Counted from the first letter of the stretch, positions 61,299-64,000 are shown. The stretch: DNA of 64,000 bases from Kineosporiaceae bacterium (GCA_050329835.1 JBHJOJ010000022.1:14502-78501); one strand, 5' to 3'. The notes: a model not told the origin generated them from the letters alone. Numbers and translations: made by a program.

Positions 61299-61757
61299 TC
61301 AGATCAACCCCTTCCGGATGGCGAAGGCGACGGCGTGGGTCCGGTTGCGCAACCCGAACCGCTCGACGACCGCCTGCAGCGTCATCTTGACGGTGCGCTC
61401 GCTGCACCCCAGGTTCGCGGCGATCTCGACCGTCGTGAGGCCGTCGCCCGCCAACCGCAGGACGTCGAGTTCCCGGTCGGTGACGACGTCGATGCGGGGA
61501 CGTGAGCGGGCCGGGGGATCGGCGCCGGTCGTGGGCCGTGGGGTCGCGCCCGCCGGCCCGCTGCGGCCGGGCCGGCCGTGGGCCCGCAGCCACCCGGCCG
61601 CGAAGCCGGTGAGGCGCGCCGCCTGTTCGCAGCTGTAGCCCTGACGTGCGACGAGGTCGAGGGCCTGGTCCGCGGTCCAGCCCGGCAGGGGTTCCCCGGC
61701 ACCCGGCGCTGCGACGGACTGCCGGGCAGTCCCGGTCACGTGAGGCCCGCCGTCCAT
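61299..61757 (-). CDS. LuxR-family HTH regulator
   Basis: C-terminal LTDRELDVLRLAGDGLTTVEIAANLGCSERTVKMTL. The start is uncertain (ATG 61757 chosen). Confidence 0.7.
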   Translation of the reverse strand: MDGGPHVTGTARQSVAAPGAGEPLPGWTADQALDLVARQGYSCEQAARLTGFAAGWLRAHGRPGRSGPAGATPRPTTGADPPARSRPRIDVVTDRELDVLRLAGDGLTTVEIAANLGCSERTVKMTLQAVVERFGLRNRTHAVAFAIRKGLI

Positions 61758-61896
61758 GCAGGTCGACGATATGCCCCCCCGGGATCCCGACTCGCCGTGA
61801 CGCGGGGCGGGATCGGCGCAGGTGCCGCGGCACCGCCGGGCCGGGCCGAGCGCTCCGGCCTTGCCGCACGGTCGGTCATCGGGTTCGCTGACTCCC

Positions 61897-62124
61897 ATGG
61901 GGCTCCATGTCAAGGTGCAGGACCTGCCGAGGGTCGGGACCCGCTACGACCTCGCCGGCGCGCGGGTGCCGCAACGGGTCTCCGTCGTCGTCCACAAGGA
62001 CGGCCACCGCGAGCTGTACGCCTTCGAGGCCGCCGGCACGGATCCCACGGCCGTCATCGAGCTGACCGAGGACCAGGCCCGCCTGCTGGCCGCCGTCCTC
62101 AACGGCTCCTACGTCGTCGACTGA
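61897..62124 (+). CDS. KhtT-like antiporter regulatory subunit
   Basis: 75 aa: VKVQDLPRVGTRYDLAGARVPQRVSVVVHKDGHRELYAF follows the KhtT N-terminal pattern. Directly upstream of the CPA2 gene. Confidence 0.7.
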   Translation: MGLHVKVQDLPRVGTRYDLAGARVPQRVSVVVHKDGHRELYAFEAAGTDPTAVIELTEDQARLLAAVLNGSYVVD

Positions 62125-62151
62125 CCGACCCGACCCCGGAGGACCCCGCGC

Positions 62152-63729
62152 GTGCTCCCCCTGCCCGCCGTCGAGATCGTCGGCGAGGTCTTCGGCGTCG
62201 CCGTCAACGACCTCATGGCCTTCGGCGCCCTGCTGCTGGGCGCCGCGCTGCTGGCCCGCCTCGGCCGCCGCCTGGGCCTGCCCACCATCCCGTTCTTCAT
62301 GGCCACCGGGATCCTGCTCGGGCCGGCGATCCCCGGCGTCGAGCTGTTCGAGGACCCCGCGACGCTGGAGTTCCTCGCCCTCGTGGGGCTGGTCCTGCTG
62401 CTGTTCCACCTGGGGGTGGAGTTCCCGCTGGAGCAGGTGCGGGCCTCCGGCGGCAGGCTGGTGCTCGCCGGGTTCGGCTACATCCTGCTCAACGTCCTCG
62501 GCGGGTTCGGGCTCGGCACGGCGCTCGGGTGGGGGGTGCCCGAGGCGCTCGTCATCGCGGGGGCGCTGGGGATCTCGTCCAGCGCCATCGTCACCAAGCT
62601 CGTCATCGAGCTGCGCCGGCTGGCCAACGCCGAGACCCCGCTCATCCTCGGCATCATCGTCATCGAGGACCTGTTCCTCGCGCTCTACCTGTCGCTGCTC
62701 GGTCCCGTGCTCGGCGACGCCGGGAGCCCCGGTGAGCTGGCGGCCGACATCGGCGTCAGCTTCCTCTTCCTGGCGGTCCTGCTGGTGGTGGCGCGCTTCG
62801 GCGGCCGGGTGATCGCCGCGGTGATCCACAGCCGCGATGAGGAGCTGCTGACGGTCGGCGTGCTCGGCCTTCTCCTGCTGGTCTCCGGCACCTCGGCGCA
62901 GCTCGGGGTCTCCGACGCGATCGGCGCCCTGCTGCTCGGTCTGGTGGTCTCGCGGACCGCGCTGGCGGAGCGGGTCGAGAAGGTGGTGCTGCCGCTGCGC
63001 GACGCCTTCGCCGCGCTCTTCTTCGTGGCCTTCGGCTTCAGCATCGAGCTCGGGGCCCTCGGCGCCGTCGTGGTCCCGGCCCTGCTGGCGGTCCTGCTCA
63101 CCGTCGTCCTCAACCTGGTCGCCGGGGTGGGGGCAGCGCGGCTGTACCGGCTCAACCAGCGGGCCGCCGCCAACATGGGGACCACGCTGCTGAGCCGAGG
63201 CGAGTTCTCGCTCATCCTCGCCTCGCTGGGGGTGGCCGCCGGGCTGGACGGCCGCGTCGGCCCGTTCATCGCCCTGTACGTGCTGAGCCTCGCCGTCGTC
63301 AGCCCGCTGGCCGCGACCAACTCCCGGTTCATCGCCCGGGTGCTGCCCGACGTCCTGTTCCGCGGCGACTTCCGCTACGTCCGGGAAGAGACGACCACGA
63401 CCGGCTGCACCCACCTCGACCACATCCGGACCACCACCGGCCGCACGCCCGAGGGCTGCGAGCAGTGCCTCGCCACCGGCGACTCCTGGGTGCACCTGCG
63501 GCTGTGCAACGAGTGCGGCATGGTGGCCTGCTGCGACGACTCGCCGAACCGCCACATGACGGCGCACTACCGGGCGGAGGGGCACCCGATCGTCGAGTCC
63601 TTCGAGCCCGGGGAGCGCTGGCGGTGGTGCTATCCGGACGAGATCCTCGTCGTCGGCGGGCCCCCGGCCCGGATCGACGGCGGCATCCCCGACGTCGACT
63701 CGCCGGTCACCTCCTCCGGCGGGTCCTGA
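62152..63729 (+). CDS. CPA2 cation:proton antiporter fused to a C-terminal UBP-type zinc finger
   Basis: ~12 TM helices of Na+/H+ exchanger type. In-frame C-terminal CTHLD...GCEQCL...WVHLRLCNECGMVACCDDSPNRHMTAHYRAEGHPIV. GGAGGA SD plus GTG start. Confidence 0.85.
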   Translation: MLPLPAVEIVGEVFGVAVNDLMAFGALLLGAALLARLGRRLGLPTIPFFMATGILLGPAIPGVELFEDPATLEFLALVGLVLLLFHLGVEFPLEQVRASGGRLVLAGFGYILLNVLGGFGLGTALGWGVPEALVIAGALGISSSAIVTKLVIELRRLANAETPLILGIIVIEDLFLALYLSLLGPVLGDAGSPGELAADIGVSFLFLAVLLVVARFGGRVIAAVIHSRDEELLTVGVLGLLLLVSGTSAQLGVSDAIGALLLGLVVSRTALAERVEKVVLPLRDAFAALFFVAFGFSIELGALGAVVVPALLAVLLTVVLNLVAGVGAARLYRLNQRAAANMGTTLLSRGEFSLILASLGVAAGLDGRVGPFIALYVLSLAVVSPLAATNSRFIARVLPDVLFRGDFRYVREETTTTGCTHLDHIRTTTGRTPEGCEQCLATGDSWVHLRLCNECGMVACCDDSPNRHMTAHYRAEGHPIVESFEPGERWRWCYPDEILVVGGPPARIDGGIPDVDSPVTSSGGS

Positions 63730-64000
63730 GGCGGGCGGGGCCCGGCAGCCGCCGGGCGGCGACCAGCGCGGCGCCGGCACCGACGAGCCCGGCCGCCGTC
63801 AGGACCAGCCCGCCGAGGGAGGCCCCCGTCAGCGCGAGACCCGCTGCCGGAGAGGTGGAACGATCGGCGGGCGGGCCGTTCGAGGGGCCCCCGGCCGTCG
63901 TCGGCGGGCCGGGGACGGGCCCGTCCGGCGCCCCGCCCGGCCCGCCCTCGCTCGACTCGACCGCGACGACGGTGACGGTGCCCGGGGCCGAGACCGTCCC
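63707..64000 (-). CDS. 3' end of a cell-wall-anchored surface protein (partial, runs off the window)
   Basis: My own translation gives ...PAAGLALTGASLGGLVLTAAGLVGAGAALVAARRLPGPARLRTRRRR*. This shows an LAxTG sorting motif, a hydrophobic helix and a basic tail, with no internal stops across 97 codons. Confidence 0.55.
   Translation of the reverse strand, partial: GTVSAPGTVTVVAVESSEGGPGGAPDGPVPGPPTTAGGPSNGPPADRSTSPAAGLALTGASLGGLVLTAAGLVGAGAALVAARRLPGPARLRTRRRR

Follow-up and report, generated by a model that had tools for sequence, protein, structure and literature searches.

What does a zinc finger do at the end of an ion antiporter, and to what kind of system does such a protein belong? This question is raised by a 64,000-nucleotide (nt) stretch of DNA from a Kineosporiaceae bacterium (GCA_050329835.1, JBHJOJ010000022.1:14502-78501), referred to below as the window, in which the gene for a CPA2 K+/H+-type antiporter runs on in frame into a UBP-type zinc finger (the zf-UBP domain) and is preceded by a small gene for a KhtT-like protein. 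Our analysis suggests that this locus is a derived actinobacterial module of the KhtTU/CpeAB type, in which the finger acts in cis as a regulatory or sensor domain that has replaced the RCK_C domain; we would give this reading a probability of about 55%. The features behind it mark one clade: the soluble partner is cut down to the KhtT N-domain (KhtT_N), and the membrane subunit carries a zf-UBP on a short, invariant linker.

The two-gene module and its relatives

In KhtTU (YhaTU) of Bacillus subtilis and CpeAB of Streptomyces venezuelae, as in the window, a CPA2 subunit is encoded right after a small cytosolic subunit that starts with the KhtT N-domain. K+/H+ antiport by systems of this kind is characteristically activated by c-di-AMP and alkaline pH. 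In canonical KhtT and CpeA, this N-domain is followed by RCK_C, which binds cyclic di-AMP (c-di-AMP) and controls the transporter (PMC10117811). The present locus differs from them in that RCK_C is absent from the soluble subunit and a zf-UBP is found on the transporter instead. The product of the upstream gene, 75 amino acids (aa) in length, matches B. subtilis KhtT over residues 3-72 only (PDB 7AGW/7AGV, phmmer, E 1.3e-9); it has no RCK_C/TrkA_C and ends at residue 75. A preliminary description of the locus had placed a KhtT-like regulatory subunit upstream of the antiporter. The gene is indeed there, but it encodes the N-domain only and not a full KhtT. The protein gave no match in NCBIfam, nor in Pfam even at E 10, the Pfam set used being one without PF25991; its orthologues in Microbacterium and Streptomyces records are tagged PF25991 KhtT_N. 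All 83 orthologues are 74-76 aa in length.

The two open reading frames (ORFs) lie on the + strand and share one frame, with a TGA between them. The first starts with ATG and the second with GTG, and 27 nt separate the stop codon (62122-62124) from the antiporter GTG. In the Microbacterium and Streptomyces records, the same 75-aa KhtT_N gene stands 5' of the fused antiporter while all other neighbours differ. As only these two genes are conserved and the others vary, the unit is a two-gene module.

The fusion itself, first described from this one sequence together with its Cys/His motif, is borne out by the ORF, by Pfam and by a match to PDB 2IDA, and the antiporter ORF has neither an internal stop nor a frame change. 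When 5.8 billion proteins were searched, each of the best 120 matches carried both Pfam domains (59-93% identity, 482-535 aa), several of them from complete genomes. We also examined 82 related loci, 80 of which were reached through the small upstream protein and two through antiporter homologues. In 77 of the 78 loci with enough DNA, the antiporter aligns as a single tblastn segment through at least residue 500, and the junction between the domains is continuous. It could be argued that an assembly or frameshift error had joined two separate genes, as the source genome is a 314-contig draft that is 89% complete. However, the frame is continuous in all 120 best homologues, complete genomes among them, and in the 77 loci from named species, where the linker is also invariant; such an error is next to impossible for the window, and for the family an assembly artefact is excluded. 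The CPA2-zf-UBP fusion, presented at first as an unusual architecture, is thus the rule in a large actinobacterial clade and not a rarity. It is common in databases, and in the literature that we found its function is uncharacterised; the earlier view of the finger as an uncharacterised cytoplasmic module therefore stands.

The short KhtT_N and the zf-UBP tail go together. They are paired in 77 of the 78 loci with enough DNA (exceptions to the pairing are described below). In an even sample of the phylum (401 genomes), zf-UBP was found in 105 genomes and KhtT_N in 93, and the two are adjacent only in the window's own genome (G000) and in one other (G226). In these two genomes, the KhtT_N frames next to the finger-bearing antiporter are short (107 and 120 codons, respectively, from stop to stop). 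Seventeen other KhtT_N loci, belonging to different families, have no finger on any of their 17 antiporters. The KhtT ORF could be resolved by tblastn in 16 of them and was 159-174 aa long in every case; Pfam confirmed TrkA_C on three of these 16 and on the long paralogue in the window's genome (E 1e-14 to 1e-17). The finger-less sister antiporters end 5-25 residues past the last helix/'LARxLPxR'.

The same division appears in a maximum likelihood tree built on membrane-domain sequences only (96 rows; quick IQ-TREE search with LG+G4). All finger-bearing antiporters fall into a single clade with a Shimodaira-Hasegawa-like approximate likelihood ratio (SH-aLRT) support of 99, which is sister to seven canonical antiporters (SH-aLRT 100). 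More distant canonical antiporters fall outside, and a single state change explains the labels. The nearest finger-less relatives share 55-59% identity in the membrane domain and have canonical long KhtT partners. Because the outer groups lack the finger, the parsimonious reading would be that zf-UBP was gained and RCK_C lost on one stem.

We met three exceptions to this pattern. The first, an antiporter allele of Streptomyces litchfieldiae (locus L024), is taken up again in a later section. Its gene (L024:3501-4940) has the C-terminus '...PDWMLRPGWRWCFPDETLVRAPLGTSRK', where an in-frame deletion has brought PGWR|YVREET of the linker up against WR|WCFPDE from the finger's end. The zinc-binding core is gone and KhtT_N is intact; the gene is a tail-less allele of natural origin or else the result of an assembly error. 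Another is the copy in G226, which is damaged (L101, G226:C59:8000-14000), with about 130 membrane-domain residues missing and a change of frame, and is likely a pseudogene or a misassembly. The remaining exception, in genome G189 (L102:3073-3324), is a short KhtT_N-like ORF (about 76 aa) that stands as an orphan, with no CPA2 gene adjoining it and an NhaA-like gene 2.4 kb away.

The window's genome has more than the finger-bearing module. At G000:C238:1-1632 (L103) it also carries a canonical pair, in which KhtT has both the N-domain and TrkA_C and the antiporter is cut by the contig end, and at G000:C242:4552-4908 a DAC-domain c-di-AMP cyclase. The finger module and the canonical pair coexist in one genome.

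Membrane domain, linker and zinc finger

The membrane domain covers almost the whole Pfam profile Na_H_Exchanger (PF00999, E 3.6e-56, profile positions 4-372 of 375). In NCBIfam it scores 110.7 bits against the CPA2 model TIGR00932, which is under the subfamily cut-off of 238, and far less against the KefB and KefC equivalogs (68 and 38 bits, cut-offs 804 and 752); YbaL is also far under its cut-off. Its only solved relatives are NapA (4BWZ, E 9e-19) and KefC (8BXG, E 5e-7). The acidic ion-binding pair of CPA2 members in transmembrane (TM) helix 5 is present, as the invariant E172-D173 aligns with D156-D157 ('IDD') of NapA and Q155-D156 ('FQD') of KefC, the first residue being Glu and not Asp. 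An AlphaFold2 model of the full protein, built on a 25-row alignment, has about 13 helices with a mean predicted local distance difference test (pLDDT) score of 68.6. The N-terminus is expected to be outside the cell.

KefC and KefB of Escherichia coli are alike in having a CPA2 membrane domain and a cytoplasmic C-terminal regulatory domain. They differ in what this domain is: Kef has a nucleotide-binding KTN/RCK domain and responds to glutathione adducts, whereas the antiporter described here has a zinc finger in that place and gave no KTN/TrkA_N match in Pfam.

The linker, which leads from the last TM helix to the first zinc ligand, follows the pattern ...LPDxL(F/L)R..(F/W)(R/T)YVREET... Described at the outset as Thr-rich, it should not be seen as a flexible spacer, as an alignment of 25 sequences (58-75% identity) shows no variation at Y409, V410, R411 and T414. 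The Pro/Gly-rich extension behind the finger (aa 500-525) is unconserved in the same alignment and has a pLDDT below 40.

The finger was recognised by Pfam as zf-UBP (PF02148) at aa 436-497 (E 1.2e-10, 41.9 bits against a gathering cut-off of 22.7; 46.4 bits in a six-frame search of the genome). It has the motif C-x-H..C-x2-C..W-x-H-L-R-x-C-x2-C-G-x3-CC-D-x-S-x3-H-x3-H..H-P. The tail (aa 416-525) matches PDB 2IDA over 84 residues (E 1.3e-30, about two thirds identical by eye) and the zf-UBP of HDAC6 at E 4.6e-6. The 2IDA entry is RPA1320 of Rhodopseudomonas palustris, a 'hypothetical protein' that shares every Cys/His position, the WVHLR insert, CC-D-x-S and the terminal WCYxD. It differs in being a free protein of 102 aa, whereas the finger in the window is tethered about 20 residues past the last TM helix. 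The candidate zinc ligands are C419, H421, C436, C439, C452, C455, C460, C461, H468, H472, H478 and C493, plus D496. They are invariant or nearly so, both in the 25 sequences and in a set of 149 bacterial zf-UBP domains with a mutual identity of at most about 50%. Within this larger set, eight Cys and four His are near-invariant, and the CC pair, D462, S464, D496 and R450 are likewise invariant or near-invariant.

Eukaryotic ZnF-UBP (BUZ) domains, such as those of HDAC6, USP5, USP16 and USP20, belong to the same Pfam family and fold family as the bacterial domain and have an aromatic pocket in common with it, and their three-zinc Cys/His pattern recurs in it at all but one ligand position. We compared the finger with HDAC6 in a HMMER alignment. 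The HDAC6 residue numbers were counted by us, and the count agrees with the ligand and pocket residues described for this protein. Eleven of the 12 zinc-ligand positions of HDAC6 are kept. The twelfth, C1186, corresponds to Asp496, and an Asp stands here in 142 of the 149 bacterial domains. The bacterial domain has an extra Cys beside the third CxxC...C ligand (C461, 149/149), which brings the total back to eight Cys and four His, and, in an insert of four residues (H-L-R-x), an Arg that does not vary (R450 in our protein). The pocket positions are kept as well, W446 corresponding to W1143, W/Y492 to W1182 and Y/F494 to Y1184. What the bacterial domain lacks is the carboxylate Arg: R1155 of HDAC6, the residue that binds the terminal Gly-Gly carboxylate of ubiquitin, aligns with Asp463, although with an indel one residue away their exact equivalence is inferred. 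Of the 149 domains, 76 have Ser at this position, 39 Asp and 18 Asn, and a near-invariant Asp (143/149) stands just before it.

The finger has many other homes. With the tail as query, at least 1390 clusters were found at E <=1e-10 among 1.84 billion representative proteins clustered at 50% identity, and most of these are 90-170 aa in length, that is, stand-alone proteins. In actinobacteria the domain had been thought of as a small stand-alone protein only. This did not hold, as the same finger is also fused, at the extreme C-terminus, to carriers of different families. It sits on CPA1 antiporters in four genomes of the phylum sample (L104, L107, L110, L111), behind some 150 aa of helical linker, and on an MFS_1 transporter (L115). 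In two genomes of the phylum, it ends a histidine kinase with cNMP_binding, HATPase_c and zf-UBP domains (L122:4774-8135 in G137; L123:6127-9855 in G067), and in both the kinase gene directly adjoins a gene with Response_reg and Pyr_redox_2 domains (a thioredoxin-reductase-like pyridine-nucleotide-disulphide oxidoreductase). No KhtT_N gene adjoins any of these CPA1, MFS or kinase fusions in the 401-genome sample. We found no relevant paper and no assigned function in the literature on bacterial zf-UBP, RPA1320 and 2IDA. Burroughs, Iyer and Aravind (2011) are said to have predicted a part for bacterial ZF-UBP in cyclic-nucleotide-dependent redox signalling, and the kinase-oxidoreductase gene pair is in line with this.

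What the finger may do

If the finger is a regulatory domain in place of RCK_C, its task would be to gate K+(Na+)/H+ exchange, either directly or through the seating of the KhtT N-domain on the transporter. The N-domain would have been retained as the part that contacts the transporter, and the module would work independently of c-di-AMP, alongside the canonical c-di-AMP-type pair of the same genome. As to the input, the preliminary description had named a metal, a redox signal or a peptide C-terminus. Judging from context, a thiol or redox signal is the likeliest, and this is the most speculative part of our proposal. The Cys-rich zinc cluster might read a thiol, redox or electrophile signal, such that zinc would be lost on oxidation or alkylation, the tail would take on another conformation and antiport would be altered as a result. 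Such an outcome would be functionally akin to glutathione-gated Kef and its protective response, and Kef, which is gated by thiol chemistry, is the model for it. It is a tentative possibility that in this clade a K+/H+ exchanger is switched directly by redox state or electrophiles through the finger, which would have replaced c-di-AMP control; zinc release would open or close the antiporter and so adjust cytoplasmic pH and K+ under thiol stress. The lead for a redox input is the disulphide-oxidoreductase gene beside the cNMP kinase with a finger, seen in two genomes, along with the near-invariance of the eight Cys and four His in the 149 domains.

Several points weigh against a regulatory and, in particular, a redox role. 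On the tree, the pairing of the short KhtT_N with the finger arose once; it is a single event and not a repeated, independent co-occurrence. The S. litchfieldiae allele without the finger core has kept its KhtT_N, and from this allele the finger may be dispensable for basic function. In the AlphaFold2 model the tail has a pLDDT of 30-64, too poor for reading contacts between the domains, and the substrate, K+ (or Na+) against H+, is assumed, with its specificity coming from homology only. Our literature search returned no paper on the function of an antiporter-borne finger. The redox link comes from gene context in other architectures and not from the antiporter module, which no redox gene accompanies. 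Lastly, Cys/His zinc sites are usually structural.

This last point leads to the view that the finger is purely structural and senses nothing, serving in dimerisation, folding, stability or the docking of KhtT_N, with any regulation residing elsewhere. A short, invariant linker would fit a rigid attachment, and the rest of the module is kept in the tail-less S. litchfieldiae allele. We nevertheless regard such a role as rather unlikely. On separate occasions, the finger has been attached to transporters of the CPA1, CPA2 and MFS families and to sensor kinases, and stand-alone copies are common, which points to a portable signalling module. The clade that has the finger is also the one in which the system's one known sensor domain has been lost.

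Among the other inputs, free zinc or another metal would act through at least one labile site, the occupancy of which tunes antiport. The change of ligand C1186 to D496 could provide such a site, as one with an Asp could bind more weakly. However, C461 brings the domain back to eight Cys and four His, which suggests that all three sites are complete and structural. Genes for metal homeostasis are absent from the neighbourhood, and zinc has no evident bearing on a K+/H+ antiporter; we regard metal sensing as improbable. A peptide C-terminus is the least likely of the three inputs named at the outset. Here the finger would read a free C-terminus, either the GGQ/GGE tail of Pup or that of the short KhtT_N, in the way that eukaryotic ZnF-UBP domains read Gly-Gly, and both the homology to the HDAC6 domain and the retained aromatic pocket are in line with this. 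But with the carboxylate-binding Arg replaced by Asp in the window and by Ser, Asp or Asn elsewhere, a Gly-Gly tail, be it of ubiquitin or Pup, is an unlikely ligand, and the Asp preceding this position adds to a site of reversed charge. As for KhtT_N, the short protein ends 1-3 residues past a conserved G(T/S/A)(F/Y)(F/V) motif, which might look like a signal at its C-terminus. The same motif is found inside long KhtT, where it leads into the RCK_C linker; it is therefore part of the N-domain fold and not a free tail. Stand-alone fingers also occur in phyla without Pup (PMC2602986). Taken with the loss of the Arg, these points make the reading of a peptide C-terminus very improbable.

The replacement of RCK_C by zf-UBP is what is new here, and with it a tail that had been a vague unknown now comes with a regulatory hypothesis that is specific and testable. 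The mechanism of c-di-AMP control is known for few transporters, KhtTU and CpeAB among them, and the locus is a widespread natural variant of these two that has lost the c-di-AMP receptor domain and gained another module on the transporter. It offers a clean comparison through which to ask what the bacterial zf-UBP does, a family of at least 1390 clusters with a solved structure (2IDA). The material for this is ready-made: sister transporters with and without the finger, KhtT partners of both lengths, a natural tail-deleted allele and an organism with both systems. Should the finger prove to be a redox switch, the module would be a glutathione-independent counterpart of Kef in mycothiol-using bacteria, and the large bacterial zf-UBP family would gain its first function.

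Features of the window and further observations

The coordinates of the module and its parts are collected in Table 1.

Table 1. Features of the antiporter module, in window coordinates
Feature	Coordinates	Strand	Basis
KhtT N-domain-only gene, presumed cytosolic partner of the antiporter	61897..62124	+	phmmer to PDB 7AGW/7AGV
Shine-Dalgarno-like GGAGGA, 8 nt 5' of the antiporter GTG	62138..62143	+	Read from the sequence
Whole antiporter gene, 525 aa: CPA2 membrane domain, linker, zf-UBP	62152..63729	+	ORF, Pfam, NCBIfam, homologues
Na_H_Exchanger membrane domain (CPA2, NhaA-fold), aa 32-386	62245..63309	+	Pfam, NapA/KefC alignments
Conserved short cytoplasmic linker, aa 398-418	63343..63405	+	25-sequence alignment
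Bacterial-type zf-UBP, aa 419-499	63406..63648	+	Pfam PF02148, PDB 2IDA, alignments
Variable Pro/Gly-rich C-terminal extension, aa 500-525, plus TGA stop	63649..63729	+	Alignment, pLDDT

A gene for a LuxR/GerE-family regulator lies divergent to the module (61299-61913, - strand), with a helix-turn-helix at aa 143-198 of the listed ORF. The TTG start listed for it overlaps the start of the KhtT_N gene, and its true start is probably further in. On the other side, a convergent gene (63707-64000, - strand) runs off the window, its 3' end overlapping that of the antiporter gene by 23 nt. The product of this gene ends with 'LALTG', a hydrophobic stretch and then RRLPGPARLRTRRRR, a sortase-type cell-wall sorting signal. 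Among 100 related loci, the LuxR gene, an FAA-hydrolase gene of the window and the downstream gene had no counterparts.

Further stand-alone fingers were seen near finger-bearing genes. In four Actinoplanes loci (L005, L007, L008, L009) and one from Actinorugispora (L066), a second, stand-alone zf-UBP gene is found just downstream of the fused gene on the minus strand, convergent to the finger-bearing antiporter. In G137, a stand-alone zf-UBP gene, a metallophosphoesterase gene and two ferredoxin genes lie just 5' of the kinase pair. One protein of 1559 aa (P0123) has 27 separate stretches that match the zf-UBP tail and looks like a tandem array of finger-like repeats.

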